From positions 30,001-62,000 of the forward strand of contig JAZDEL010000006.1 in assembly GCA_043808785.1 (NCBI GenBank): a stretch of 32,000 nt of DNA. The letters run 5' to 3'. Both the position numbers and the translations under genes were made by a program. A model generated the notes under the pieces. The model saw only the letters and a list, made by a program, of their open reading frames with translations. It was not told where the DNA came from and searched no databases. This document shows, in pieces, positions 3,634 through 31,397 of this stretch (position 1 is the first letter of the stretch; every line of letters begins with the position of its first letter). Source of the stretch: Candidatus Iainarchaeum sp. Its GTDB lineage: Archaea; Iainarchaeota; Iainarchaeia; Iainarchaeales; JAZDEL01.

Positions 3634-6591
3634 ATGGAAAACGAAATAGCCTCCATAAGGAAGCGCGACGGCAGGATTGTGCCCTTTGACGGCGGGAAGA
3701 TAACGAACGCGATTTTCAAGGCAGCGCAGGCTGTGGGGGGAAGCGACAAGGCAACAGCGGACAGGCTTGCGGGAAGGGTTTTCGAGGCGCTTGGGAAGAG
3801 GTTCAGGGCGGATGAGATACCGAACGTTGAGCAGATACAGGACGTTGTTGAAAAGGTGCTTATAGAGGAGGGGCACGCAAAGACAGCGAAGGCTTACATA
3901 CTTTACAGGCAGCAGCACAGGAAGATAAGGGAAATGGAGAGCACGCTCGTGGACGTGCAGAACACCATTGATGAGTACCTGGAGCAGAGCGACTGGAGGG
4001 TAAAGGAGAACAGCAACGAGGCGTATTCGTTCAGCGGCCTGCTGCTGCATACGGCAGGGAAAGTCATTGCGACTTACGCGCTGACGGAAATTTACACGCC
4101 GGAAATAAGCGAGGCGCACAAGAAGGGATATTTCCATATACATGATTTGAGCCACGGGTTTATAGGCTACTGCGCGGGATGGAGTTTGGAAAAGTTGCTT
4201 GAGCGCGGCTTCGGGGGAGTGGCGAACAAGGTGGATGCGAAGCCCGCAAAGCACATGGATGTTGTAGTGCACCAGATGGTAAACTACATAGGCTGCCTGC
4301 AGATGGAGTTTGCGGGGGCGCAGGCGTTCAGCAGTGTTGATACGCTTCTTGCGCCTTTTGTTAAGGCAGACAACCTCACATATAAACAGGTCAAGCAGGA
4401 CATGCAGAAGCTTGTGTTCTCGCTGAACATTCCCTCCAGATGGGGCTGCTTCAGCGAGGATACTGAAATCCTCACGGAAGCGGGCTGGAGGAACGGCACT
4501 GAACTCGGGGAAGGGGATGTGATTGCAACGTTCAACACCGGCACGGAGGAAATAGAATATTTGCCCGTGCTGAGAATGACAAAAGACCATTACAAGGGAA
4601 AAATGAAAAGGCTGAAGAACAGGATTACGGACCAGCTGATTACGCCAAACCACAGGGTGCTGAGAAGGATACACAATTACAAGGAAGGGGTTTCAAAATC
4701 GAAATATGTTTTCGAGGAAGCGGACAGCCTGAAAACGGGCATTCCGCTTATACCGCTCGGCGGAACTTACAACGGAAATAAAATGGATGGCGACATGGTT
4801 AACCTCCTTTCATGGGTTGTTTCCGAGGGCAGCCTGTGCGAAGGGGAAAGGGTGGCAATCCACCAGTCCGCGGAAATGAACCCGCAGAACTGCGATGAGA
4901 TAAGGGGAACGCTTGGCGGGCTTGAAATTCCATTTGATGAAATGCCTAAAATGTCGGGGTTCACGGGAAAAACAAACTGCCTGAGGTTCAGGCTGAACAG
5001 GCCTGCATCGAGGGCTCTGCGGAACGAATTTTTCCCGGAATACAAGAAAGGGATTCCTGAAAGCATAAGGCATCTGCCAACCGAACAGATAAGGCAGTTT
5101 GTGGAAACATATATGAAGGCTGACGGCTGGCTGCCTGAGAACAAAATTTACACAAAGAAGCAATCTGATGCGGACATATTCCAGGAGATTATAGCAAAGG
5201 CGGGCTGGGGCAGCACGTGCTACAAGAACAAGAACGGCATTTATGTCGTGAGGGTTATAAGGCACCATTACACGCAGGTCACATCGATATGCGAGGAGGA
5301 TTATGACGGAATTGTCTGGTGCCCGACAACGGAGAACAACACAGTTGTTGTGAGGAGAAAGGGGAAAGTTTTCATAAGCGGGAACTCGCAGTATCCTTTC
5401 AGCAACCTCACATTCGACTGGGTTGTTCCCGAGGATATGAAGAACAAGAAGGCGCTTGTCGGCGGCGTGAGGCAGGAGTTCACTTACGCAGACTGCCAGA
5501 AGGAGATGGACATGATAAACAAGGCGTTCCTTGAAATCATGGGCGCGGGGGACGCGAACGGAAGGGTATTCACGTTCCCGATTCCGACATATAACCTGAC
5601 AAAGGACTTTGACTGGGATAGTGAGAATGCAAACCTCCTCTTTGAGGTTACGGCGAAGTATGGCTTGCCCTATTTCCAGAACTACATAGGCAGTGCGCTG
5701 GAGCCGAGGAGCATAAGGGCTATGTGCTGCAGATTAAACATGGACACGACGCAATTGATGAACAGGCCCGGGAGCATGTGGGGCCCGGGGGACAGCACGG
5801 GCAGCATAGGGGTAGTGACAATCAACGTGAACAGGCTTGCGTACGAGGCGAAGAACAGGGAGGAGTATTTCAGGAAGCTTGCGCACTACATGGGGCTTGC
5901 GAAGCAGTCATTGGAAACAAAAAGGGCGATAATAAACAAGAACCTCGAGAACGGGCTCATGCCCTATACGAAATCATACCTCGGCACGTTCAGGAACCAC
6001 TTCTCGACAATAGGGCTCTGCGGAATGAACGAGGCGTGCAAGAACCAGGTCGGGGAGGGAATAAACGGCAGGGAGGGCAAGCAGTTTGCAATAGAAACGC
6101 TGAATTTCATGCGCAACAAGTGCCTTGAGTTCCAAATAGAGACGGGCAGCCTTTACAACCTTGAGGCAACGCCCGCGGAAAGCGCTTCTTTCAGGCTTGC
6201 GAAACTCGACAAGGAAATGTATCCCGACATCATAACCTCGGGGAAGGATGTGCCTTACCTTACGAACTCCACGCAATTGGGCGTGGGGGAGACGGATGAT
6301 GTAATCGAGGCGCTGGAGCACCAGAACGACCTGCAGCCCCTTTATACAGGAGGCACGATATTCCACACGTTCATGGGCGAGAAGGTTTCGAGCGGCGGGG
6401 CGTGCAAGAGGCTTGTGAGGAAAATAGCGGAGAACACGAGGCTGCCTTACTACAGCATAACCCCCACGTTCAGCGTGTGCCCGGAGCACGGGTATATTGC
6501 AGGGGAGCATTTCAGGTGCCCCGTGTGCACGGATGGCGGCAAGGGGAAGGCGGAGAAAGAAGCGGTGGCGGTTTCGCACAAGGCAGGGTAA
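3634..6591 (+). CDS. nrdD: anaerobic (class III) ribonucleoside-triphosphate reductase large chain; contains an intein and lacks the glycyl-radical C-terminus
   Basis: An N-terminal ATP-cone is present (IRKRDGRIVPFDGGKITNAIFKA). NrdD core motifs are present (NIPSRWG / SQYPFSNLTFDW, RAMCCRLN, LYNLEATPAE). The C-terminal metal site is TPTFSVCPEHGYIAGEHFRCPVC. The ORF then ends in a non-conserved-looking tail without an RxxGY glycyl-radical motif. Confidence 0.9.
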   Translation: MENEIASIRKRDGRIVPFDGGKITNAIFKAAQAVGGSDKATADRLAGRVFEALGKRFRADEIPNVEQIQDVVEKVLIEEGHAKTAKAYILYRQQHRKIREMESTLVDVQNTIDEYLEQSDWRVKENSNEAYSFSGLLLHTAGKVIATYALTEIYTPEISEAHKKGYFHIHDLSHGFIGYCAGWSLEKLLERGFGGVANKVDAKPAKHMDVVVHQMVNYIGCLQMEFAGAQAFSSVDTLLAPFVKADNLTYKQVKQDMQKLVFSLNIPSRWGCFSEDTEILTEAGWRNGTELGEGDVIATFNTGTEEIEYLPVLRMTKDHYKGKMKRLKNRITDQLITPNHRVLRRIHNYKEGVSKSKYVFEEADSLKTGIPLIPLGGTYNGNKMDGDMVNLLSWVVSEGSLCEGERVAIHQSAEMNPQNCDEIRGTLGGLEIPFDEMPKMSGFTGKTNCLRFRLNRPASRALRNEFFPEYKKGIPESIRHLPTEQIRQFVETYMKADGWLPENKIYTKKQSDADIFQEIIAKAGWGSTCYKNKNGIYVVRVIRHHYTQVTSICEEDYDGIVWCPTTENNTVVVRRKGKVFISGNSQYPFSNLTFDWVVPEDMKNKKALVGGVRQEFTYADCQKEMDMINKAFLEIMGAGDANGRVFTFPIPTYNLTKDFDWDSENANLLFEVTAKYGLPYFQNYIGSALEPRSIRAMCCRLNMDTTQLMNRPGSMWGPGDSTGSIGVVTINVNRLAYEAKNREEYFRKLAHYMGLAKQSLETKRAIINKNLENGLMPYTKSYLGTFRNHFSTIGLCGMNEACKNQVGEGINGREGKQFAIETLNFMRNKCLEFQIETGSLYNLEATPAESASFRLAKLDKEMYPDIITSGKDVPYLTNSTQLGVGETDDVIEALEHQNDLQPLYTGGTIFHTFMGEKVSSGGACKRLVRKIAENTRLPYYSITPTFSVCPEHGYIAGEHFRCPVCTDGGKGKAEKEAVAVSHKAG
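4447..5385 (+). mobile_element. intein (313 aa) with LAGLIDADG homing-endonuclease domain, inserted in nrdD between ...SRWG and SQYPF...
   Basis: It starts with Cys (CFSEDTEILTEAGW, block A). Block B is ITPNHRVL. LAGLIDADG-like blocks are LLSWVVSEGS and FVETYMKADGW. The terminal block is VVVRRKGKVFISGN, followed by a +1 Ser. The flanking extein sequence reconstitutes the conserved RWG-SQxPFSN motif. Confidence 0.8.
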
Positions 6592-6638
6592 AAGTTAGCG
6601 CAGCAAATTAAATTTACGCAAAAAACGAGGTGATGTGA

Positions 6639-6800
6639 ATGGCGGAATGCGGAAAGGAGTGCGAGGTATACAGCAGGATTGTCGGCTACTTCAGGCCTGT
6701 GCAGAACTGGAACATGGGCAAGAGGGAGGAGTTCGGCGAGAGGCTTGAATACAGCGAACAGAAGGCGCTTGCGGGGGAGTTCGCCAAACGGGGCAAGTGA
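6639..6800 (+). CDS. stand-alone class III RNR glycyl-radical domain (53 aa)
   Basis: Hand translation gives MAECGKECEVYSRIVGYFRPVQNWNMGKREEFGERLEYSEQKALAGEFAKRGK. The RIVGY-FRPV-xxWNxGKxxEF pattern is the canonical NrdD C-terminal glycyl-radical signature. GAGGTGAT lies upstream of the ATG. The frame differs from nrdD, and the 47-nt spacer has stops in all three frames. Confidence 0.7.
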   Translation: MAECGKECEVYSRIVGYFRPVQNWNMGKREEFGERLEYSEQKALAGEFAKRGK

Positions 6801-6804
6801 TTTT

Positions 6805-7047
6805 TTGATAAAGGCTTACAAATTATTCACGATACAGACATGCACCAAATGCCCCGAAATCAAGGGGTTCCTTGCGGGCACGGGGCTGAAGGGCGAGGAG
6901 ATAAACGCAACAACCGATGCGGGGTTTGAAGAGGCGAAAAAGCACAATGTAATGGCCGCGCCCACCGTGATTTTTTTTGACGGGAACGGGAAGGAAGTTG
7001 CAAGGGCGGGCACGATTGAGGAGATAAAAAAACTGCTCCTGCCGTGA
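6805..7047 (+). CDS. small thioredoxin/NrdH-like redoxin (80 aa, CTKC active site)
   Basis: A TTG start at 6805, 4 nt after the stop of the glycyl-radical ORF, gives (M)IKAYKLFTIQTCTKCPEIKGFL...AAPTVIFFDGNGKEV. That is a CxxC after strand 1 plus a cis-Pro-like APT motif. The upstream part of track ORF 6679..7047 overlaps the previous gene and was discarded. Confidence 0.6.
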   Translation: MIKAYKLFTIQTCTKCPEIKGFLAGTGLKGEEINATTDAGFEEAKKHNVMAAPTVIFFDGNGKEVARAGTIEEIKKLLLP

Positions 7048-7099
7048 CTGCGCGTTTGCAAACCGTGCGGAATCCGCAAACCCGCAGGAGGGTGTTTTT

Positions 7100-7798
7100 A
7101 TGCAAATAAATGGACTCCAGAAAACCACGCTCATAGATTTCCCCGGAAAGGTTGCCTGCACTGTTTTCCTTGCGGGATGCAACTTCAGGTGCCCTTACTG
7201 CCAGAACCCCGACCTTATCGAGGGTTCCGGGAAACTGCCGGCAATTCCCGAAGAAGAGTTCTTCGGCTTCCTTGAAGGCAGGAAAAAATGGCTGGATGGG
7301 GTTTGCATAACGGGCGGGGAGCCGACGATAAACGGGGAACTTCCGCGATTCGTGAAAAAAATAACGGAACTGGGGTTTGCGGTGAAGCTTGACACCAACG
7401 GCACGAACCCGGAAATGCTTGCGGAACTTTTAAAGGCGGGGCTGCTTGATTACGTTGCAATGGACATAAAGGCGCCACTCGGGAGGTATACGGGGGTTGC
7501 GCGCGTTAAGGCGGATGCGGATGCGGTAAAAAAAAGCGCTGCGCTGCTCATGAAAAGCGGGGTTGAATACGAATTCAGGACAACGGTTGTGCCCGGGCTT
7601 TTCGATGAAAAGGATGCGCGGGAGATTGCGAAGTGGCTTAAGGGCGCGGAGAAATATTACATACAGCAGTTCAATCCGCGCACAAGGCTGCTGGACAGGG
7701 CATTCGAGAAGATTGAGCCCTACCCGGGGAAACGGCTTGAGGGGTTCGGGAAAATTATGAAGCCTTCGTTCAGGATTTGCGAAATAAGGGGAATTTGA
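7100..7798 (+). CDS. nrdG: anaerobic RNR activating enzyme (radical SAM)
   Basis: GLQKTTLIDFPGKVACTVFLAGCNFRCPYCQNPDL contains the CxxxCxxC radical-SAM cluster motif. A GGEPT motif is present. AGGAGGG SD lies upstream. Confidence 0.88.
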   Translation: MQINGLQKTTLIDFPGKVACTVFLAGCNFRCPYCQNPDLIEGSGKLPAIPEEEFFGFLEGRKKWLDGVCITGGEPTINGELPRFVKKITELGFAVKLDTNGTNPEMLAELLKAGLLDYVAMDIKAPLGRYTGVARVKADADAVKKSAALLMKSGVEYEFRTTVVPGLFDEKDAREIAKWLKGAEKYYIQQFNPRTRLLDRAFEKIEPYPGKRLEGFGKIMKPSFRICEIRGI

Positions 7799-9872: not shown

Positions 9873-10538
9873 TTAGCCGAAACCGCAAAGCAGTTCCTTC
9901 AGTTTTTCCGCGGGATTTTTTGCCTTAACCACGGCAGAGGAAACAAACACCCCGCTCGCGCCGAGTTCGAGGCTTTTTTTTACGTCTTCCGCGGAGTTTA
10001 TTCCCGCGCCCGCAATAACCGGAATTCGCGCAACTGCGTGCACCGCTGCAACAGCGGCGCTTATCACTTCGGGCTTTGCCGTGGAAACGGAAAGCTTGCC
10101 CCCGATGAGTTCCGGGGGTTCAATCGCTATGAAATCGGGCCCAAGGCGGGCGAGTTCCGCTGCGCGCTTCGGGGTTTCAGCGCAGAGCATTATTTTGAGG
10201 TGCGCCTCTCTTGCCCTCTTCACACACGCGGATATGAACTCCGTGCCCTGCCTGTCCTCGGCGTGGTTTGTTATTGTTCCCGAGGCGCCCGCTGATTTCA
10301 CTGCTTCGGGAAGAACACTGCCTGTGTGCGAACCATAAGTTACAGGGTCTATGTGCTGGGAGAAAATTTCAAGGGAAGAGGAGGAAGCAACAGTGCCGAT
10401 GTCAACTGCCTGGGGGACAAGCACAATTTTGCATTTGGAAGCCTTCGAAACCTTCTCCGCGGCCTTTGCAAGGGCAACCGCCTTTGCGCCCGTTGCCTCG
10501 GCATAGGTTTTGAAATTCAGGAAAAGCACCGGGCGCAT
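9873..10538 (-). CDS. tpiA: triosephosphate isomerase, short archaeal type
   Basis: The product is 221 aa. Motifs are MRPVLFLNFKTY, TNHAE, AIEPPELIG and AGAGI. Confidence 0.85.
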   Translation of the reverse strand: MRPVLFLNFKTYAEATGAKAVALAKAAEKVSKASKCKIVLVPQAVDIGTVASSSSLEIFSQHIDPVTYGSHTGSVLPEAVKSAGASGTITNHAEDRQGTEFISACVKRAREAHLKIMLCAETPKRAAELARLGPDFIAIEPPELIGGKLSVSTAKPEVISAAVAAVHAVARIPVIAGAGINSAEDVKKSLELGASGVFVSSAVVKAKNPAEKLKELLCGFG

Positions 10539-10623
10539 AAACCATAAAGGGCTTATGGGTTAAAAAAGGTTTTTGAAAACTGCCGGGGGGGCGTGTTTCG
10601 GCAGCGCAGCACGGCAGAATTGC

Positions 10624-11694
10624 CTAACCCCCCGACGGCCCGGTTTTGGGGAATTTGCCTTTCTTTCTGGGGGACAACGGCACTTTCAATTTTTTCTTCA
10701 TGGCTCTCCGCCAGTCCCTCGTTATTTCCTTTTTGAGGGACACCACAGGCCCCAATTTTCGCCTTTCTATTTGCATGCAGATTATTCTCTCGGGTTCTGC
10801 ATAGTGCTTTTCTGTTTTTGACAAAAAAACCCCTGCCCTGAACTGGCCGCTCGCCTTCAGTTTGTCCGCAATGTTCTGGTACCTAAAATAGTCAAGCACT
10901 GACTTTCGCAGGTGCACTAATGCGGCCCCTTTATCGCCCAGCATGTTGCAGATGCGCTGCACTACCATCGCCTGCGAGTATGCGTAACTTGGGCCCATCA
11001 GGCCGATTATGACCTTGTAGCGTTCATTTGGCCTGAAAACCGGGCTCTTGAAGTCTATAGAGCCTACAAAAAGCCTGTCAACCCTTTTCCTGACTTCCTC
11101 CGGCGGCTCGGCCACGCACATCCCCGTGATGTGAATCCTGTCGCCGAATATTTTCTTCAGCTCAGCATCAGCAAATGCGTTCCCAATCCCGATGTCCAGT
11201 ATTGGAACCGGCCCTTTCTCCCCCGCAAGCCGCATTTCGGCTTCTTTTTTGGAAATCAAGTCCACAAGGTCGGTTTTCAGGGCGCGGTTGTAATCGTTAA
11301 GGTTTCTGTCCATAATCCAGGCGCGCTTGTACTCCCTTTCTTTAATAAGTTCCATGAGCCGATTATAAATGCCCTTATCTTCCGCGTCTTTGAGGTAAGC
11401 CTCCCGCGCTTCGCGGTTATTCATTATGCGTTCATATCCATCATATGCTTTTGCAAGGTCTTCTCTGTACTTAATGGCTGCCATCTCTTCCTCCCACTTT
11501 GGAGCAGTTATTCCACTCAGGTATGCCCTTACAGGTGGCGGCAACTTCGAGCGCAAGCTAAACTTTCCCAAGTCCACGTTCCGCGGCTTTGTCATGAATT
11601 TCCAGAATCTGGACCGCCGAAATCTCGGGCCAAGTTTCGGCTTTTTGCTGGCCTGCCGAACGTTCCGGGCACCCCACGATGGCTTTTTCCTCAT
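10624..11694 (-). CDS. hypothetical protein with Rossmann/SAM-methyltransferase-like core and highly basic N- and C-termini
   Basis: I trimmed the ORF 10624..11709 to the ATG at 11694 (MRKKPSW...). The segments PILDIGIGNAF ... HITGM ... DRLFVGSIDF resemble class I methyltransferase motifs I/II/post-I. I recognise no confident family. A palindromic TATA (AATATATATT, about 11731-11740) lies upstream. Confidence 0.5.
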   Translation of the reverse strand: MRKKPSWGARNVRQASKKPKLGPRFRRSRFWKFMTKPRNVDLGKFSLRSKLPPPVRAYLSGITAPKWEEEMAAIKYREDLAKAYDGYERIMNNREAREAYLKDAEDKGIYNRLMELIKEREYKRAWIMDRNLNDYNRALKTDLVDLISKKEAEMRLAGEKGPVPILDIGIGNAFADAELKKIFGDRIHITGMCVAEPPEEVRKRVDRLFVGSIDFKSPVFRPNERYKVIIGLMGPSYAYSQAMVVQRICNMLGDKGAALVHLRKSVLDYFRYQNIADKLKASGQFRAGVFLSKTEKHYAEPERIICMQIERRKLGPVVSLKKEITRDWRRAMKKKLKVPLSPRKKGKFPKTGPSGG

Positions 11695-11867
11695 CACTGC
11701 CAACCACAAAAGTAATGTGTCGCTTGCAATATATATTGCTGCCGTTTTGCAGCCCAGGGGCGGGAATGCGCCCCTTATGCCCGAACTTGGGTTGCCCGGG
11801 CAAAATGCAAAACCCGCAAAAAACTCACGAATTTAAGGCTGTTGTTGCAGTTTATATTAAAGAGACT

Positions 11868-13829
11868 ATGGGTTCCGAAGAGGGAATAATCGCGGGCTTG
11901 GGCGCAAATCCTTCCGATGAGGAAATAATAGCGGGCTTCGGGGCAAAGGTCAGGGAGCACTACCCTAACCCGGACATCGGGCTGATAAGGCAGGCCTATT
12001 TCTTCGCAAAGGAGATATGCACAAACGGGAAGACCGAGGGGGGCAGGCCTTTCATAATGCACCCGCTCGGCACTGCAGCCATAGTGGCCGAAATGGGCGG
12101 GGACGAGAAGGCTGTCGCAGCAGCACTGCTGCACAACACCTGGGATGCGCAGATGCACGATGCCTGGGGATTGAACCTCACAGGCAGGGACATAGTTGAG
12201 CGGCGCTTTGGCTGCGAAGTTGTCGGGATTATCGACGAGGTGCTGAGGGAAAGCAAGGCTGAACTCGGTTACAAGAACAGGCTTTCCCCTTCGCTTCAGG
12301 CAAAGCTGCTGATGGCTGCAATGAGGGACAAGAGAGGGTTCCTTGTTAAGATTGCGGCAAGGCTTGACGCATTGAGGGAAGCCGCAGGCTGGAACTTGGA
12401 AAAGCGGGGGGAAATTGCAAAGGAGGCGATTGGCGTCTTCGCCCCGATTGCGGAAAGGCTCGGCATCTACAGGATAAAGGATGAGTTCGAGGAACTGGGC
12501 TTTAAATACCTGCACCCGAACGAGTATGCCGAACTGGCGGGCAAAATGGAGTCAAGGCTTTCAAAGGAGGAGGCGTGGCTGCGCGAAGCCGGGGGGATAT
12601 TGAGGAAAAAAATCTCGGACGCGCACATAGAGGCGGAGATAACCCACAGGGCAAAGACGCTTTACAGCATCTACAGGAAAATGGAAAGGCGCGGCGTGGG
12701 GCTTGAGGGCATATACGACTTGCTCGGGCTAAGGGTAATAACCGGCAGCGTGAAGGACTGCTATTATGTGCTCGGGCTTGTGCATGCGCAGTGGAGGCAT
12801 ATGGAGTCCGAGTTCAACGACTACATAGCGAAGCCGAAGCAGAACAACTACCGCGCGATACACACCACGATTATCGGGCCGGGAGGCGTGACAATAGAGG
12901 TGCAGATAAGGTCCGGGGACATGCACAGGATTGCGGAGCTCGGGGTTGCTGCCGACTGGAAATACGAGAAGGTCATAGGCGAGGAACGGTATGAAAAAAG
13001 GCTGCTCTGGCTCAAGCAACTGTTCGAGTGGGAGAGGCAGGCACAGAACCCGAGCACGGGGGGCTTTGAAATAAAGTACAAGGGCGACGTTATTGTTGCG
13101 CTGACCCCCGACGGCGCGCCTATAGAACTGCCGCGGGGCGCAACAGTGCTCGATTTCGCGTATGCCGTGCACACCGATGTCGGGAACAGGTGCAGCGGGG
13201 CAAAGGTTAACGGCAAGATGGTTCCGCTCAGGCACGCCCTTGAAAACCTTGATGTTGTGGAGGCAATGACCTCGCAAAGGCAAAAGCCTGTGAGGGGCTG
13301 GCTGGGAATAGTGAAAAGCGAAAAGGCGAGAAAAAAGATAAGGGCTGCGCTGCATATGGAAAGCGCGGAAAAGCCGCGGAAGGGCGCTGCACTGAAACAG
13401 AAGGTTTCCATAGGCGCCCGCGGGCAGGGGATTAAGCTGGCGAAGTGCTGCAACCCTTTGCCGGGGGACGGGGTAATCGGCTACAGGACGGCAAAGCGCA
13501 AGATATCGGTGCACAGGGAAGGGTGTGCCGAAGCCAAAAAAATGGGGGCTGTGCTTAAGCCGGTTGAGGTGGAATGGGGCGCAAAAGAAGCCGGGGGCTA
13601 CTCGGCAAACATGGCAATAACCGCCAGGGAGGGGGCAAACATCTCCTCGCCAATGGCCGAACTGCTTTCGAAGCACGGCATAAGGCAGTGCGCGGCAAGC
13701 CTTAAAACAGTCAACAACAAAATAGCGAACTACACTTTCACAATAGATGTGAACGACCTGAAGGCGCTCATGGGCATAATCAGGGAAGCGGGAAAAATAG
13801 ACGGCGTGATTGAGGTTTCAAGGGCGTAG
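11868..13829 (+). CDS. long RelA/SpoT homolog (RSH): degenerate HD domain + (p)ppGpp synthetase + TGS + CC/Zn-finger + ACT
   Basis: The pseudo-HD region is HPLGTAAIVAEMGGDEKAVAAALLHNTWD and KIAARLDALREA. The synthetase region is RAKTLYSIYRKM, LLGLRVI, EFNDYIAKPKQNNYRAIHT, EVQIRSGDMH and GVAADWKYE. The TGS region is VALTPDGAPIELPRGATVLDFAYAVHTDVGNRCSGAKVNG. The Zn-finger region is KCCNPLPGDGVIGY...VHREGC. An ACT-like C-terminus is present. The start is uncertain; in-frame ATGs also occur at 11766 and 11805. Confidence 0.85.
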   Translation: MGSEEGIIAGLGANPSDEEIIAGFGAKVREHYPNPDIGLIRQAYFFAKEICTNGKTEGGRPFIMHPLGTAAIVAEMGGDEKAVAAALLHNTWDAQMHDAWGLNLTGRDIVERRFGCEVVGIIDEVLRESKAELGYKNRLSPSLQAKLLMAAMRDKRGFLVKIAARLDALREAAGWNLEKRGEIAKEAIGVFAPIAERLGIYRIKDEFEELGFKYLHPNEYAELAGKMESRLSKEEAWLREAGGILRKKISDAHIEAEITHRAKTLYSIYRKMERRGVGLEGIYDLLGLRVITGSVKDCYYVLGLVHAQWRHMESEFNDYIAKPKQNNYRAIHTTIIGPGGVTIEVQIRSGDMHRIAELGVAADWKYEKVIGEERYEKRLLWLKQLFEWERQAQNPSTGGFEIKYKGDVIVALTPDGAPIELPRGATVLDFAYAVHTDVGNRCSGAKVNGKMVPLRHALENLDVVEAMTSQRQKPVRGWLGIVKSEKARKKIRAALHMESAEKPRKGAALKQKVSIGARGQGIKLAKCCNPLPGDGVIGYRTAKRKISVHREGCAEAKKMGAVLKPVEVEWGAKEAGGYSANMAITAREGANISSPMAELLSKHGIRQCAASLKTVNNKIANYTFTIDVNDLKALMGIIREAGKIDGVIEVSRA

Positions 13830-18256: not shown

Positions 18257-18997
18257 ATGAAGCGTGTTGCAACAGGGGTTCCCGGGCTGGATGAACTGCT
18301 TGAGGGCGGATTTCCAGAGGGGAGGTCGGTGCTGCTTTCGGGGGCGTGCGGCACGGGAAAGACCATACTTTCGATGCAGTATATATACAACGGCGCGAAG
18401 AAATTCTCCGAGCCCGGCGTGTATGTTACGCTTGACGAGAGACCTGATTTGATAAGGCAGGACGTATTGAGGTTCGGTTGGGATTTGAGGAAGCTTGAGG
18501 ATGAGAAGCTGCTGCACATCGTGGACGGGAGCATTGCAAAACTTGGGCTGCCGAGCGATGAGCAGTTCTCGATGCCTGCAACAGGCTTCGACCTCGACAA
18601 GCTGCTGCTCGAGATAATGAGGATTTGCAAGAGGATAGGGGCGAAAAGGGTTGTTGTTGACAGCATTCCCGCGCTTGGGTTCAATTTCGACGACCCCAAC
18701 GAAATAAGGAAGGCAATACTGAAACTCAGTTACCTGCTTATGCGCACGGGCGTGACTTCAGTGCTTACTTCCGAGGTGCAGGAAGGGGAAAACAGGTTCG
18801 GAAAGTACGGAGTAGAGGAGTATGTTGTTGACGGAGTGATTGTGCTTTATTATGCGGGAATAGGGACGCAGAGCAACCGCACGCTGCACATAAGGAAGAT
18901 GCGCGCGACAAACCATTCGGAGGACCTGCATCCGCTGAAGATAACAAACAAGGGGATGGTTGTACACAAGATAGAGGAAGAATACAAGGAAACGTGA
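18257..18997 (+). CDS. single-domain KaiC/RecA-superfamily ATPase
   Basis: GVPGLDELLEGGFPEGRSVLLSGACGTGKT contains Walker A. RVVVDSI is Walker B-like. LHIRKMRATNH is typical of KaiC-like proteins. Confidence 0.8.
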   Translation: MKRVATGVPGLDELLEGGFPEGRSVLLSGACGTGKTILSMQYIYNGAKKFSEPGVYVTLDERPDLIRQDVLRFGWDLRKLEDEKLLHIVDGSIAKLGLPSDEQFSMPATGFDLDKLLLEIMRICKRIGAKRVVVDSIPALGFNFDDPNEIRKAILKLSYLLMRTGVTSVLTSEVQEGENRFGKYGVEEYVVDGVIVLYYAGIGTQSNRTLHIRKMRATNHSEDLHPLKITNKGMVVHKIEEEYKET

Positions 18998-22345: not shown

Positions 22346-23971
22346 TTAGCGGAATTCGTTCAGGCGCTTAATTACCCTGTCTTGCCCTAACGCAAAAATA
22401 AGCGTGCCTATCCTCGGGCCGCGCTCTTTTGCGAGGAGCGCGAGGTAGAGGGATTTGAAAAGTTCGCTTTGCTGGGTGTTATTTGATTTTGCAAGGGCGA
22501 AGAGTTCCGCGAGGAGTGCGTCCGCCGATTTGCTTTTGCGCACGAGTTCCACAACCTGCGGGAACAAAGATGCTGCAGCGGGGGAAATCGCATTTTTCGC
22601 ATCTACGGGAAGTTTTTCAGCGAACGCCAGTTTCGAATCCGCGGGTGCGTATTTCTCGGACCATGCGCGCGCGTTGCGCAGGCGCCCGAGGAGCGCTGCC
22701 TTTTCCTGCGCGGGGATTTTTTTAGGGAGGCTTCCCGAATCCTGCAGTTTTGCAATGAGTTCGGCATCGGATGAGAAAAGCTGCGAGAGGGAGGTGGCGA
22801 GGGAATAATCCAAAAGCGCTTCGCCAAGTTCCCTGCCGTGAACCCTAGAATAAGTGAAAAATTTTTTTGATTCCGGATTAGCCCCAACGGACGCAATAAC
22901 CCTGTCCAGCTCGAGTTCAAGGTTGGGCACGTCCTGCCACGAGAAGCTGCGGGCTTTTGTTATGCGCTTTATGAACAAATATTTAAGGGCTTCGGGCCTC
23001 GCCACCTCAAGCCAGTCTTTGGGGTAAATTACGTTGCCGAGGGAAGCGCTCATCTTTTTTCCGTCAACCATCAAATGCTCGTAAAAAATCGGCTCCGGTG
23101 CGGGAAAATTAAGGACGCGCTCGCAGATTTCCGCGTTTATCCAGAAGGCGGAATTCCTTGATTCGTACTCCTTGCCCGCGCCCTCGGAACAAACGCCCCA
23201 GCGCTTCCACTGCGCAGCCCACTCGCTTTTCCATACCAACTTGCCGTTGGCTTTTTTTAAATCCGCGGTGCCTTCATGCCCGCAGCCCTTTGCTGTTTCG
23301 GTTTCAAACTTGTAATCGCCGCAAACGTAATTAACCTTCGAATCCTCGACCGAGGTTATTTTTGTGGTTTGTATTTTGCCGCACTTTTCGCAGACCTGCT
23401 GCCAGGGGAACCAGTTCGCGCCGAGGTGCGTGCCTTCTTCCTTGAATTTGTTTATTATTTCGCGCACTGTCGATGTGCCTTTCAGAACCTGCATTACTTC
23501 CTCATTGAAATTGCCTTTCTTGTACTCTTCCCGCATCGAGAAGCGCTTTGGTTCGGAGTCGAGGAACTGCTTCATTGTTTCAAAAAATATTTCTGCGTGG
23601 TGCTGTGCGTAGCTTTTGTGGCAGCCCTCGGGGTCGGGGATGTCCGAGACGGGCATGCCTATGCATTCGCGGAATTTTTCGGGAACGCCTGCGGGGATTT
23701 TCCTCAATGGGTCCATGTCCTCGGTTACGTAAATGAAGCCCGTTGGGAAGCCCCGCGATTTCAGGGCCTTGTAAACCGCCTCGCTGCGGATTATGTCCGA
23801 GAGGCGGCCTATATGGAGAACGCCCGAAAGGGAGGAACTTGACTTGACGTTCCATTTTTTCAGTTTCGGCGCGCTTGCATGGGAAAAACTGCCCTTTTCG
23901 CGCCGTGCAATTTTTTCCGCAATCTGCTCCGCCCAGAAAATGGCTTCCTTGCCGTCAGTTGACTGCCGCAT
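22346..23971 (-). CDS. lysK: lysyl-tRNA synthetase, class I (archaeal type)
   Basis: I trimmed the ORF to the ATG at 23971 (MRQSTDGKEAIFWAEQIAEKI). A HIGH-like motif is present (SGVLHIGRLSD). Zn-knuckle-like cysteines are present (CEKCGK ... CGDY ... GCGH). A KMSKS-like motif is present (GKKMSASLGN). The upstream 257 codons of the track ORF are antisense to the antiporter gene. Confidence 0.85.
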   Translation of the reverse strand: MRQSTDGKEAIFWAEQIAEKIARREKGSFSHASAPKLKKWNVKSSSSLSGVLHIGRLSDIIRSEAVYKALKSRGFPTGFIYVTEDMDPLRKIPAGVPEKFRECIGMPVSDIPDPEGCHKSYAQHHAEIFFETMKQFLDSEPKRFSMREEYKKGNFNEEVMQVLKGTSTVREIINKFKEEGTHLGANWFPWQQVCEKCGKIQTTKITSVEDSKVNYVCGDYKFETETAKGCGHEGTADLKKANGKLVWKSEWAAQWKRWGVCSEGAGKEYESRNSAFWINAEICERVLNFPAPEPIFYEHLMVDGKKMSASLGNVIYPKDWLEVARPEALKYLFIKRITKARSFSWQDVPNLELELDRVIASVGANPESKKFFTYSRVHGRELGEALLDYSLATSLSQLFSSDAELIAKLQDSGSLPKKIPAQEKAALLGRLRNARAWSEKYAPADSKLAFAEKLPVDAKNAISPAAASLFPQVVELVRKSKSADALLAELFALAKSNNTQQSELFKSLYLALLAKERGPRIGTLIFALGQDRVIKRLNEFR

Positions 23972-24041
23972 GCAGAACCACAGATAGGATAGGGGGAATG
24001 AAATAGTTAAACTTAATGTTCCGGCACCCGCGGGGAGTACT

Positions 24042-24075
24042 GAAAAAACACAAAAAACAAACCGCGGTTGGCGGG
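24042..24075. repeat. hairpin-repeat family copy R1 (A/C-rich arm + CCGCGG core + short G/T arm), upstream of lysK
   Basis: The sequence is GAAAAAACACAAAAAACAAACCGCGGTTGGCGGG. The A/C-rich arm matches copy R4 at 21 of 23 positions. Confidence 0.6.
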
Positions 24076-24119
24076 AAAAAGCATTAAATAACACGTGGGG
24101 CATTAGAGTTACGGTTAAG

Positions 24120-25292
24120 ATGGAACTGTTTCTCGTTCTCGGCGCGCTGTTCCTGCTGACGTTCCTTATCGGGCAGGTTGTGGAGAAAATAAGGGTGCCG
24201 TGGATTTTCGCCGCGCTGCTCATAGGCACCGTGCTTGCCGCGTATAACCCGGTCGGGGACGTGACCTCGTCCGAGCCGTTTATTTTCCTGGCGCAAATGG
24301 GGATGTATTTCCTTCTTTTCGTGATAGGGTTTGAGATAGACCTTGCGGAGTTCAGGAAGGCGGGTGCGTTCATACTGAAGAGCACGTTTTTCATAATCCT
24401 GCTTGAGGCGGTGTTCGGCAGCCTGCTTATCCACTTCGTTTTCGGGTATGATTGGGCGATATCGGCAATAGTTGCGCTGTCCTTCGCCACGGTTGGGGAA
24501 GCCATACTCATCCCGATACTTGACGAGTTCGGCATCGTTAACACGAGGCTCGGGCAGAGCATAATAGGGATAGGGACGCTCGACGACATAATAGAGGTTG
24601 CGATGCTTATCGTGGTAATAATGCTCGTTGGCTCGCAGGGCGCGGCGCAGGCAAGCGCGGGGGTTACGCTTGTTTCGCTCTTCGTGCTTTCCGCGCTTGC
24701 CGTGGTGCTGATGAGGCTGGGCAAGTCGGGCAGGAAGTTCATGTTTCACGGCATCGAGATGCTTTTCCTGTTCGTGCTTTTCGTGCTTTTCCTTTTCCTC
24801 GGGGTCGGGGAGTATGCGAACGCGGGGCCTATAGCCGCGCTCCTTGCGGGGATTTCGCTTAAGGCGTTTGTGCCGAAGGAGAGGCTGCAGGCGATAGAGT
24901 CCGAGGTAAAGACGATGTGCTACGGCTTCTTTGCGCCGGTGTTTTTCCTCTGGGTCGGGCTTTCGCTCGACATAGGGTATCTGCTTGCGTTTCCGCTGCT
25001 TGTGCTTGCGGTAGTGGTTGTTTCAAACAGCGCGAAGATTCTGGGCAGCTACATAATGGCGAGGAAGGAGCTTGGCACAAGGCAGTCGATTCTGCTCGGC
25101 ATCGGGCTGTCAGTGAGGTTCAGCACGAGCATAATCATAGTAAAGATTCTTCTTGACAACGGGCTTATAGGCGCGGAGTTGTATTCGGTAATTGTCGCGT
25201 CAAGCATAGTGTTCAAGTTTGTCGTGCCCGTGCTGTTCTCAAACCTGCTCGTGAAGTGGGGCGTTTCGAAGGGCTCAACCGTAGCGGGGTAA
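24120..25292 (+). CDS. cation:proton antiporter (CPA2/Kef-NapA-like)
   Basis: The product is 390 aa and polytopic, with about 11-12 hydrophobic helices. The N-terminus GQVVEKIRVPWIFAALLIGTVLA is typical of Na+/H+ exchanger family proteins. Confidence 0.8.
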   Translation: MELFLVLGALFLLTFLIGQVVEKIRVPWIFAALLIGTVLAAYNPVGDVTSSEPFIFLAQMGMYFLLFVIGFEIDLAEFRKAGAFILKSTFFIILLEAVFGSLLIHFVFGYDWAISAIVALSFATVGEAILIPILDEFGIVNTRLGQSIIGIGTLDDIIEVAMLIVVIMLVGSQGAAQASAGVTLVSLFVLSALAVVLMRLGKSGRKFMFHGIEMLFLFVLFVLFLFLGVGEYANAGPIAALLAGISLKAFVPKERLQAIESEVKTMCYGFFAPVFFLWVGLSLDIGYLLAFPLLVLAVVVVSNSAKILGSYIMARKELGTRQSILLGIGLSVRFSTSIIIVKILLDNGLIGAELYSVIVASSIVFKFVVPVLFSNLLVKWGVSKGSTVAG

Positions 25293-25305: not shown

Positions 25306-25447
25306 TGGGAAGAGCGGGATTTGAACCCGCGACACCACGGTTTCTGCTCCTTTCGCAAAACCTGGAATCTTCAGCTGCACATGGGCAGAGCGTGGAAAAC
25401 TCCCCTCAACGCCCATCGTGTGCTCTCCCAGGCTGAGCTACCTTCCC
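25306..25447 (-). tRNA. tRNA-Phe(GAA) with two predicted introns (41 nt at 30/31, plus coords 25376..25416; 27 nt at 37/38, plus coords 25342..25368)
   Basis: The hand fold of the minus strand is GGGAAGG-TA-GCTC-AGCCTGGGA-GAGC-A-CACG[intron1]G-CTGAAG[intron2]A-CCGTG-GTGTC-GCGGG-TTCAAAT-CCCGC-TCTTCCC-A. Removing 41+27 nt gives a perfect 74-nt cloverleaf with a 5-bp anticodon stem CACGG/CCGTG and loop CTGAAGA. No CCA is encoded. Confidence 0.7.
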
Positions 25448-25485: not shown

Positions 25486-26121
25486 CTATTCCGTCGCAGC
25501 CATGGCCCGCGCTAGTTTATAGGGGTTTGAAAAGCCGATTTCGGAAATCCATTTTCGCAGGTTTGCCTTCCCGTTTAGTGGAACCTTATATGCGGTTCGG
25601 ACTGATGTTTTTGATTTGTAAGCCCAAATTTTTGCAACATTGAATCCGGCAACGCTTAATAGTTCCTTCAACTGTTCCGCAAGAGCGCGGCTCGTAGTGG
25701 TTATCTCAATAGAAGGGTATTTCGGCGAGCCCGGTTTGTCGGCCACGAAAACGGAGCCGTCCGTGTCCACGATGCCCCGGATTGCGTGCTTTGCCGACTC
25801 CCAATCGGCTTCGATTTCGGCGGGAATTTTGGCCTTAGCGCACTTGCCTTCATGGAAAGGCAACCTGAATGTAGTCGTCAGGCGTTCCACGATCGGCTTA
25901 GAGTCAAATTTAATTCTGACCGCACGTTCCCTGAATTTAGGCTTAACCACCCGCCCCCATGCGGAATAAATTAGGCGGCTCAGATTTTCAAAATACTGCG
26001 CATCGGTTATTGGATTTCCCGTAAAGCCGATTATGTATTTCCTGTTGCGTTTGTAAATGTGCCCGTCCCCGAGGTAGGCGCCGATTAGTTCGCATTCTTC
26101 GGGAGAAATAGTTTCAGCCAT
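25486..26121 (-). CDS. free-standing double-motif LAGLIDADG homing-endonuclease-like protein (211 aa)
   Basis: Motif 1 is ELIGAYLGDGHIY and motif 2 is AIRGIVDTDGSVF, about 100 aa apart. It has its own TATA (TTTAAATT) about 26 nt upstream of the ATG, suggesting a leaderless mRNA. It lies between tRNA-Lys(UUU) and tRNA-Phe on the same strand. Confidence 0.8.
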   Translation of the reverse strand: MAETISPEECELIGAYLGDGHIYKRNRKYIIGFTGNPITDAQYFENLSRLIYSAWGRVVKPKFRERAVRIKFDSKPIVERLTTTFRLPFHEGKCAKAKIPAEIEADWESAKHAIRGIVDTDGSVFVADKPGSPKYPSIEITTTSRALAEQLKELLSVAGFNVAKIWAYKSKTSVRTAYKVPLNGKANLRKWISEIGFSNPYKLARAMAATE

Positions 26122-28131: not shown

Positions 28132-28267
28132 CGAGCCCGAGGGGATTTGAACCCCCGACACCCTGGTTGCCCCAGAATGGAAATTAAGAGCCTCACCCAC
28201 GCACAAGGAAACCGCAAGCGGAAACTTGAAACATGACAGGTGCTCTACCAGACTGAGCTACGGGCCC
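28132..28267 (-). tRNA. tRNA-Lys(CUU) with two predicted introns (45 nt at 29/30 or 30/31, plus coords 28192..28236; 17 nt at 37/38, plus coords 28168..28184)
   Basis: The fold is GGGCCCG-TA-GCTC-AGTCTGGTA-GAGC-A-CCTG[intron1]G-CTCTTA[intron2]A-CCAGG-GTGTC-GGGGG-TTCAAAT-CCCCT-CGGGCTC-G. Removing 45+17 nt yields a perfect 74-nt cloverleaf. The body is identical to tRNA-Lys(UUU) outside the anticodon arm. Confidence 0.75.
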
Positions 28268-30863: not shown

Positions 30864-31397
30864 ATGGCGAGGAAGGAACTCTGCGATTTTGTGATTGTGC
30901 AAACGTACCTGAGTTCGCTGGCGGGGGAGCACGCAAGCAAACTTGTGAGGATTTGCGGGAGGAAGAGGAAACCCATTACGGACGAGGAGATAGAAAAGAA
31001 GCTCCCGATAAAAATAACCGAGATAAGGACAATACTCAACAGGCTGCATTACTGGGGGATTGCATCATACCAGAAAAGCAGGAACCCGAACACAGGATGG
31101 TATTCGTATTCGTGGGAAATAAAGCCGGACAGGATTTCGGAACTTATAGCGGAGGGGCAGGCGGAGGAGATTGCGAAGATAGAGGCGAAGATAGAGTACG
31201 AGAGGAATTACGCCTTTTTCAGCTGCAAGGGCGGGTGCAATAACGTGCCCTTTGAAATTGCCGCGGAATACGAGTTCAAGTGCCCTGACTGCGGGAAGAC
31301 AATGGAGGCAGTGAATAACGAGAAAAGGGTAAAGGAACTGAAGAAAGGCCTGAAGGACATTGTTGACAGCATTGGGGAGATAAAGAAGCTTGTGTAA
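30864..31397 (+). CDS. tfe: transcription factor E (TFE-alpha, TFIIE-alpha homolog)
   Basis: An N-terminal winged helix is present (PITDEEIEKKLPIKITEIRTILNRLHYWGIASY...WYSYSWEI). A Zn-ribbon follows (FFSCKGGC...FKCPDCGKTM). Confidence 0.8.
   Translation: MARKELCDFVIVQTYLSSLAGEHASKLVRICGRKRKPITDEEIEKKLPIKITEIRTILNRLHYWGIASYQKSRNPNTGWYSYSWEIKPDRISELIAEGQAEEIAKIEAKIEYERNYAFFSCKGGCNNVPFEIAAEYEFKCPDCGKTMEAVNNEKRVKELKKGLKDIVDSIGEIKKLV

Follow-up and report, generated by a model that had tools for sequence, protein, structure and literature searches.

We have examined a gene for a long RelA/SpoT homologue (RSH), located at positions 11868-13829(+) of a 32,000-nucleotide stretch of contig JAZDEL010000006.1 of Candidatus Iainarchaeum sp. 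(this whole stretch is referred to as "the window"). The open reading frame (ORF) is a genuine long RSH gene, acquired anciently and inherited vertically at a conserved archaeal locus, and its product belongs to a clade that has lost the core of the alpha-helical (AH) region. With a degenerate hydrolase domain and a conserved synthetase core, the protein is probably an active, monofunctional (p)ppGpp synthetase that would be unable to degrade its own product.

The gene lies in an uninterrupted ORF at 11679-13829(+), where, according to the ORF list, the ATG at 11868 gives a protein of 653 amino acids; an in-frame TTG at 11898 makes the N-terminus uncertain by about 10 amino acids. A database entry titled 'MAG: HD domain-containing protein [Candidatus Diapherotrites archaeon]', from a contig of 113,830 bp, contains the identical protein (P0001). 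The gene and its domains are the following, with the source of each assignment in parentheses:

11868..13829, + strand: long RSH gene, stop codon at 13827-13829 (ORF list, Pfam, NCBIfam, AlphaFold2/Foldseek)
11994..12467, + strand: pseudo-hydrolase domain HD_4, residues 43-200 (Pfam, 3e-24)
12645..12971, + strand: synthetase domain RelA_SpoT, residues 260-368 (Pfam, 1e-37)
13098..13262, + strand: TGS domain, residues 411-465 (Pfam, 2.5e-20)
13278..13433, + strand: remnant of the AH region, residues 471-522 (alignments, linker lengths, AlphaFold2)
13434..13583, + strand: Zn-finger/ribosome-intersubunit (RIS) domain, residues 523-572, aligning from RelA 608 (precomputed Pfam match, PF28438 RelA_RIS)
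13593..13823, + strand: ACT/RRM domain, residues 576-652 (Pfam ACT_4, 4.9e-8)

The HD-fold domain is thus followed by the RelA_SpoT nucleotidyltransferase domain (Pfam matches at residues 43-200 and 260-368), as membership of the long RSHs requires, and the C-terminal region contains the TGS, RIS (PF28438) and ACT domains; the AH domain (PF19296) is not detected in this region, which has about 84 residues fewer than that of RelA. A first-pass annotation of this DNA, made from the sequence alone, had described a full bacterial-type architecture: the HD-fold, synthetase, TGS, Zn-finger/RIS and ACT domains are indeed present, but the AH domain is not. Every motif that it quoted has been located in the protein, i.e. 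AALLHNTWD, IAARLDA, YSIYRKM, EFND, DYIAKPKQNNYRAIHT, EVQIRS, AADWKYE and CCNPLPGD. In the alignment of representatives, residues D429, F430, A431, Y432, H435 and G439 of the TGS domain coincide with invariant columns, as do the Zn-finger ligands C527, C528, H549 and C553, with CCNPLPGD at residues 527-534.

The NCBIfam model TIGR00691 (spoT_relA) matches with 500.6 bits, marginally above its cut-off of 499.2; the equivalog models of RelA (NF008124, 354.8 bits, cut-off 728) and SpoT (NF008303, 362.4 bits, cut-off 947) remain far under theirs. The protein is not a small alarmone synthetase (SAS), since it has five domains and reaches 38 bits with the YjbM equivalog model vs a cut-off of 320. Sequence matches in the PDB include 8fr8_I ('GTP pyrophosphokinase RelA', 5e-113), E. 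coli RelA (3e-100) and the 6yxa chain (B. subtilis Rel, 1e-96). An AlphaFold2 model, built from an alignment of 52 homologues, has a mean pLDDT of 80.9, and its Foldseek matches are RelA/Rel structures; the N-terminal half superposes on S. aureus Rel (7oiw_A) with a TM of 0.93 and an rmsd of 2.3 Å, the HD domain is modelled with a pLDDT of 80-94 across most of its length, and the ACT domain has the topology beta-alpha-beta-beta-alpha-beta (pLDDT 87-94).

The alignment with E. coli RelA pairs residue 502 with RelA 503 and residue 523 with RelA 608, i.e. 104 residues of RelA (504-607) are replaced by 20. A gap of 80-90 columns at the AH region is common to all archaeal homologues in the MAFFT alignment, and the distance between the TGS domain and the CC motif is 51-64 amino acids in the short-AH proteins vs 125-150 in the bacterial forms. 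In the AlphaFold2 model, the region has one short helix (485-495), equivalent to Linker Helix 1, and then about 25 amino acids of linker modelled with low confidence (pLDDT <50 at 498-510); there is no counterpart of the AH core or of Linker Helix 2 of bacterial RelA/Rel, and the deletion is common to all of the approximately 40 short forms. Loveland et al. 2016 (PMC4974054) place the AH core of RelA (~520-560) against the D stem of the A/R tRNA and Linker Helix 2 against the ACT domain; the Zn-finger/RIS and ACT domains, which the window protein retains, bind the A-site finger, S19 and L16. Its shortened linker would reflect a different geometry of binding, either as an adaptation to it or as its consequence.

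To collect the relatives of the protein, 1.84 billion cluster representatives were searched exhaustively, which yielded 19,084 homologues; the best 150 were analysed for clade membership, and among them about 40 are proteins of 603-648 amino acids that match in one continuous stretch, all without the AH core. In a neighbour-joining tree (617 columns, 100 bootstraps, no labelled proteobacterial RelA among the sequences), the window protein, P0002 and P0003 form a trio with 100% support; this trio belongs to a pseudo-hydrolase clade of 30 members (99%), all with degenerate hydrolase motifs and most with an ExDD-type charge motif, which is enclosed in a short-AH clade of 39 members (75%). In the rest of the short-AH clade, the hydrolase motifs are intact (LLHDTVED, KLAD[KR]LHNMRT) or partly altered, often together with RxKD. 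When the HD columns are removed, the pseudo-hydrolase clade is recovered at 79% and the short-AH clade at 31% without P0292 or 46% with it; trees of the synthetase (SYNTH) or the HD domain taken singly give 0-17% support and no resolution. Where members of the pseudo-hydrolase clade carry a taxon name, it is Candidatus Diapherotrites/Iainarchaeum, and genes of intact-HD short-AH members adjoin an archaeal histone gene (L003) or Cdc6/Orc1 and TFS genes (L012); the members of the short-AH clade that were checked are all archaeal. Contig L012, which also encodes ribosomal protein S2, has its intact-HD short-AH long RSH at 5612-7540(+) and, about 2.5 kb away at 10088-10900(-), a 270-amino-acid RelA_SpoT-domain protein without the catalytic Glu of the EIQIRT motif.

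The annotation had called the protein RelA-like, and as a statement of descent this does not hold: the score with the RelA equivalog model is less than half of its cut-off (354.8 vs 728), the protein nests in the short-AH clade, grouping with the pseudo-hydrolase members at 99%, and E. coli RelA has a full AH region. Its likeness to proteobacterial RelA is, as the tree and the alignments indicate, convergent rather than due to shared descent. The placement of the protein in an RSH phylogeny, which the annotation had proposed as a way of finding the donor, has recovered the archaeal short-AH clade but has not named a donor, as the bacterial sister group has 0% support in the neighbour-joining tree. 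The best bacterial scores come from Clostridia and other Firmicutes (38-41% identity); a profile search with six archaeal sequences added one new short form, its word index favouring the abundant Clostridia, and a 'Clostridia-like' origin is a best-hit impression only. The ancestral type of the archaeal clade was probably a bifunctional Rel, as suggested by the basal archaeal members P0101 and P0158, which keep LLHDTVED, a KLADKLHNMRT-type motif and RxKD.

The synthetase domain has been compared with 156 representatives. The catalytic, Mg-binding residues D284 and E344 are kept, together with the substrate-binding residues R261, K263, K271, R289, D318, K324, N326, Y328, H332, Q346 and R348; R261, K263, K271, D284, R289, D318, K324, Y328, E344, Q346 and R348 are invariant across the whole clade. 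Among the trio, SYNTH is the best-conserved domain (68-71% identity vs 53-61% for HD), which argues for continued function. The charge motif that precedes DYIA is EFND (residues 315-318, 12810-12821) in place of the RxKD of bifunctional Rel/SpoT, and it comes closer to the ExDD type, as had been claimed; its third position is Asp in 23 of the 27 other pseudo-hydrolase clade members, which mostly have ExDD.

Several observations weigh against an active synthetase or against its bacterial-style operation. The annotation had reported intact synthetase motifs, which is true of the catalytic core and of YSIYRKM and EVQIRS, but AADWKYE (residues 361-367, 12948-12968) departs from AAHWxYK at His363 and Lys367, two residues that 152 of 153 other representatives share and that only P0001-3 have changed. 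Residues H260 and H311 are atypical as well as D363 and E367; with a constant offset of 9 in the alignment, D363 takes the position of E. coli RelA H354 and H260 that of RelA G251, and in RelA H354Y reduces and G251E abolishes ppGpp synthesis (PMC4154780). The sister orthologue P0002 has H332Q in a column that is otherwise 100% conserved, and EFND, with its Glu and final Asp in place, has Asn at the third position and is not a strict ExDD. As the AH core is absent, bacterial-style ribosome activation is not to be assumed. The RSH also evolves faster than its housekeeping neighbours (58% vs 66-89% identity in the syntenic locus L006, described below), and no alarmone hydrolase or second RSH was found in the window or the syntenic loci, to which the search was limited. 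H260 is less worrying than G251E might suggest, because the G251 column is naturally variable (Y, W, A and S also occur). All in all, the synthetase of the three-member subclade may be weakened or altered.

These changes could also mean that the subclade consists of doubly inactive pseudoenzymes, i.e. nucleotide-, tRNA- or ribosome-binding regulators or scaffolds that make no alarmone, an explanation that we regard as unlikely. It would account for the restriction of H363D and K367E/G/M to the trio, with position 367 (E, G or M) not even conserved within it, for the additional changes P311H, G260H and, in P0002, H332Q, for the lowered synthesis of the RelA H354Y mutant (PMC4154780), and for the failure to find a partner hydrolase nearby. 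Set against it are the Mg- and substrate-binding residues R261, K263, K271, D284, R289, K324, Y328, E344, Q346 and R348, which the trio has kept despite 42-46% divergence, and the standing of SYNTH as its most conserved domain; D363 and H260 do not vary within the trio, which points to selection and not to decay. In SaRelP, His190, located 16 residues after the catalytic Glu, only forms a hydrogen bond with the ATP ribose (PMC5794853); by analogy, this residue would be the equivalent of position 363, where an Asp could form the same bond. For the structural role of the AAHW His, no account of Rel H344Y was found in the literature searched, and PMC7983052 is silent on this residue. We conjecture that the gained His260 might compensate for the loss of His363.

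A different reading of the same residues, and in our view a rather improbable one, is that of an active pyrophosphokinase with altered specificity, where the remodelled pocket (H260, H311, Q325, N327, D363, E367 and EFND) would shift the preference for donor or acceptor and yield, in place of (p)ppGpp, a product such as (pp)pApp or some other substrate pyrophosphorylated at the 3' position. The subclade-specific and mutually conserved changes do cluster at substrate motifs (PKQNNY for PKPNxY, AADW, EFND), and two reports describe toxSAS enzymes of the RSH family that make (pp)pApp or pyrophosphorylate tRNA (10.1101/2021.04.30.441581, PMC11782079). Yet the guanine-stacking Y328 and the acceptor-site residues K324, N326 and H332 are kept, and no toxin-antitoxin-like gene arrangement is seen at the window locus. 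We know of no long RSH with a non-guanine acceptor.

The inability to degrade the alarmone, i.e. the other half of our preferred reading of a monofunctional synthetase, is supported by the hydrolase domain, whose residues were read from alignments to Rel/RelA structures and 155 representative homologues. The catalytic set is degenerate (R56T, D90N, E93D, D94A, D164A, N168A): two of the four Mn ligands are lost, as are the ED pair and the equivalents of R44 and N148, and six amino acids are inserted after the HN motif. The correspondence is listed below in RelSeq numbering, which we take to be that of Hogg et al. 2004:

First His, RelSeq H53: H65 here, retained
HD dyad, RelSeq H77/D78: H89 and N90 here
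Catalytic ED, RelSeq E81/D82: D93 and A94 here
Asp of DRLHN, RelSeq D144: A164 here
Asn of DRLHN, RelSeq N148: A168 here
Upstream substrate-binding Arg, RelSeq R44: T56 here

Where bifunctional Rel/SpoT proteins have intact HD, ED and DxxHN motifs and the upstream Arg, the window protein has HN, DA, AxxDA and Thr, i.e. a degenerate hydrolase domain as in RelA. The annotation had read the HN dyad in AALLHNTWD (residues 85-93) and the second metal-ligand motif as IAARLDA (residues 162-168, with Ala in place of both Asp and Asn), and both readings agree with the alignments to Rel and RelA. The listed columns are 91-99% conserved in 116 bacterial-type representatives, those of the six substitutions 91-97%, and the loss of hydrolysis that it proposed is well supported. 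It is very improbable that the protein is a bifunctional Rel whose hydrolase still works through a non-canonical metal site: H65 and H89, two of the four Mn ligands, are kept, ligation by Asn90 is conceivable, the HD fold is confidently predicted and no separate hydrolase was found nearby, but D164A deletes the fourth metal ligand, the catalytic ED pair is D-A (D/A then A/T across P0001-3), the substrate-binding R56 and N168 are gone, six residues intervene after HN, and the 30-member clade has differing, non-conserved residues at the hydrolase columns, a pattern of relaxed selection.

The genomic context has been examined in the window and in five independent assemblies from different samples, where RSH orthologues (37-58% identity) occur at the same position. 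Near the window RSH are genes for an archaeal-type short TIM (NF003302, 262 bits) and a class-I LysRS (TIGR00467, lysS_arch), and further neighbours encode aTrm56, SerRS, TFE and a KaiC-like ATPase; there are three tRNAs in the window, two with long introns, which ARAGORN in bacterial mode missed and Rfam found. The archaeal character of the neighbours, as stated in the annotation, is therefore confirmed. A contig scan with peptide patterns (two narrow patterns from a three-sequence alignment), which is not a census, returned L006 plus two unrelated HD+SYNTH genes of Bacilli. The additional features of the window and the gene orders of the syntenic loci are as follows:

30864-31397: TFE, in the window
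25306-25447, - strand: intron-containing tRNA, 142 nt (Rfam)
28132-28267, - strand: intron-containing tRNA, 136 nt (Rfam)
L006, a 'Candidatus Iainarchaeum' metagenome-assembled genome, RSH 58% identical: NrdD, rSAM, GDH, EndoIII, TIM(-), RSH, then FtsX, ABC, FtsX, CARDB, KaiC, IPPS, Big, LysRS
L001, RSH 53% identical: same locus
L011, 387-kb contig, RSH 40% identical: also with an A-type ATPase operon
L002, RSH 39% identical: RSH, KaiC and LysRS adjacent
L009/L010, 637-kb contig, RSH 37% identical: PcrB, RPA, RadA, archaeosine TGT, TIM(-), CorA(-), RSH, then KaiC, LysRS(-), SerRS(-), Trm56, TFE

These loci rank alike by the identity of the RSH and by the identity of the housekeeping genes that flank it. 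The GC content at third codon positions (GC3) of the RSH is 0.70 vs 0.55-0.73 for almost all neighbours, and its distance to the rest of the window in relative synonymous codon usage is mid-range, so that the comparison of codon usage and GC3 suggested in the annotation finds the gene unremarkable. The shared position between TIM and KaiC/LysRS in five assemblies likewise answers the question of contig integrity, as it excludes chimerism, contamination and recent transfer as far as the data allow. The horizontal acquisition that the annotation had proposed thus stands as to the ultimate bacterial origin, but not as a recent event. We give next to no credence to the idea that the RSH is foreign to the archaeal chromosome, be it through faulty assembly or binning or through a very recent insertion of bacterial DNA, in spite of the Clostridia-type Rel proteins (38-41% identity) as best non-archaeal matches and of a lineage-specific 361-amino-acid ORF directly upstream: this candidate is refuted, as far as the data allow, by the common position in assemblies that include 387-kb and 637-kb contigs with A-type ATPase, RadA, PcrB and TFE genes, by a composition and codon usage that agree with the neighbours, and by nearest RSH relatives that are archaeal rather than bacterial.

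The history of the gene, as suggested by the tree and the synteny, would comprise a single, ancient entry of a Rel-type gene from bacteria into DPANN archaea, an early loss of the AH core, the loss of hydrolysis and the switch from RxKD to ExDD in the Iainarchaeota branch, which would replay the origin of proteobacterial RelA independently, and vertical inheritance at a fixed locus between TIM and the KaiC-like, class-I LysRS, SerRS, aTrm56 and TFE genes. As for the activity, the enzyme would move the beta,gamma-pyrophosphate of ATP onto the 3'-OH of GTP/GDP, forming (p)ppGpp, with the TGS, Zn-finger and ACT domains as its regulatory or sensing module: by analogy with RelA/Rel, the TGS domain would read the CCA end of deacylated tRNA, and the A-site finger (H38), uS19 and uL16, all of them universal elements of the ribosome, would be the docking sites of the Zn-finger and ACT domains. 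Tentatively, and with more doubt than confidence, we suggest that Iainarchaeota run a (p)ppGpp stringent response, with a streamlined RSH on the archaeal ribosome, a TGS domain that reads tRNA without the AH core, a RelA-like synthetase of independent origin and a non-RSH hydrolase, and that other DPANN archaea do so with an intact hydrolase.

Compared with known systems, the window protein shares with E. coli RelA a pseudo-hydrolase domain with lost HD, ED and DxxHN motifs, an acidic, ExDD-like motif before DYIA, the TGS, Zn-finger/RIS and ACT domains, and a structural match (5iqr_8, E 3.9e-39); it differs in not being an orthologue, in lacking RelA ~504-607 (the AH core and Linker Helix 2), in its archaeal host, and in having EFND for EFDD and Asp and Glu in place of H354 and K358. 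With the bifunctional Rel of Firmicutes and Actinobacteria it shares the top sequence scores and the N-terminal fold (TM 0.93 to 7oiw_A); unlike these proteins (RelSeq and the B. subtilis, S. aureus and mycobacterial Rel), it has lost the hydrolase residues, has EFND for RxKD and an altered AAHWxYK, and is without the AH core. The archaeal divRel, Mesh1-L and pbcSpo are small RSHs attributed to horizontal gene transfer from bacteria (PMC3153485); they are single-domain proteins, sporadic in a few Euryarchaeota, unlike the window RSH, which is multidomain, with a regulatory C-terminus, and stably inherited.

The same RSH census reported no long RSH in archaea (Atkinson 2011, PMC3153485), there are no 'Archaea' entries in the searched text of the supplements to the RSH census preprint, and a 2023 review describes (p)ppGpp as undescribed in archaea, with probably no important role there (PMC10249747). 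The view that archaea lack long RSHs, on which the annotation relied, is nonetheless dated: Li et al. 2021 (PMC8407392) found RelA/SpoT in the genomes of Diapherotrites (69%), Woesearchaeota (41.7%), Pacearchaeota (21.3%) and Nanoarchaeota (19%), and predict a bacterial origin. The presence of RelA/SpoT in Diapherotrites is therefore not new, and the genes of that report are in all likelihood the same as the window RSH. The main text of that article deals with presence and origin by lateral gene transfer only; domain architecture, hydrolase degeneracy, AH deletion, synthetase motif and locus do not appear in it. In the literature searched, we have found no description of an archaeal short-AH clade, a monophyletic pseudo-hydrolase subclade, the conserved locus or the atypical synthetase motif.

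In at least one archaeal phylum, a multidomain homologue of the stringent factor has long been maintained by selection at one fixed place in the chromosome, and the Iainarchaeota lineage would have repeated the transition from Rel to RelA, i.e. hydrolase decay and reversal of the charge motif, independently of the proteobacteria. The intact-HD, pseudo-HD and H363D proteins make archaeal alarmone synthesis and sensing testable, and simple experiments can now address whether archaea have a stringent response; the natural series of AH-core deletions can be used to dissect the contribution of the AH region to ribosome- or tRNA-dependent activation. A further question is how a cell without an RSH hydrolase escapes alarmone toxicity.

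Upstream of the gene, a TATA-like element, TTTATATT, has been read from the sequence at 11851..11858 (+ strand), ending 10 nt before the annotated ATG; it is a possible archaeal promoter, and its closeness to the ATG makes the true start codon or the transcription start in the window uncertain. In L006 (9910-9925) and L001 (4806-4820), ACGCATAAAATATAA occurs 35-50 nt upstream of the RSH ATG and is likely a conserved archaeal TATA/BRE promoter; it is absent upstream of the window RSH, where TTTATATT stands instead. The 361-amino-acid ORF at 10624-11709(-), located between TIM and the RSH and divergent from the latter, has a lower GC content (0.507), a very basic N-terminus and no Pfam or NCBIfam match; as it is absent from the syntenic loci L006, L001, L011 and L009, it is a lineage-specific insertion that also displaced the promoter region of the RSH.

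Of all proteins of the block, the KaiC-like ATPase (18257-18997 of the window) is the best conserved, with 58-89% identity. In L009 (10001-12652) and L002 (382-3063), its gene follows the RSH after only about 50 nt on the same strand, possibly as part of an operon; the window, L006 and L011 have a MacB-type ABC/FtsX/CARDB cassette inserted between the two genes, in the opposite orientation in L011. The LysRS ORF (22346-24742(-)) is over-extended, as the lysS_arch model covers 22346-23950 only and the upstream part overlaps a genuine Na+/H+ exchanger gene at 24120-25292(+). With the LysRS of L006, where all other neighbours reach 66-89%, the window LysRS shares only 32% identity, but with that of L011, a more distant locus, it shares 52%, which suggests a replacement of LysRS in one lineage. 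A free-standing LAGLIDADG-domain ORF (25486-26121(-)) adjoins the 142-nt tRNA, and a similar gene is located downstream of LysRS in L002. Lastly, solved homologues of NrdD (3634-6591(+), 985 amino acids) align to residues 7-260 and 628-972 only; the insertion of about 365 amino acids between them, where no Pfam match and no Hint or LAGLIDADG domain was detected, is conserved in L006 (82% identity, 1023 amino acids).

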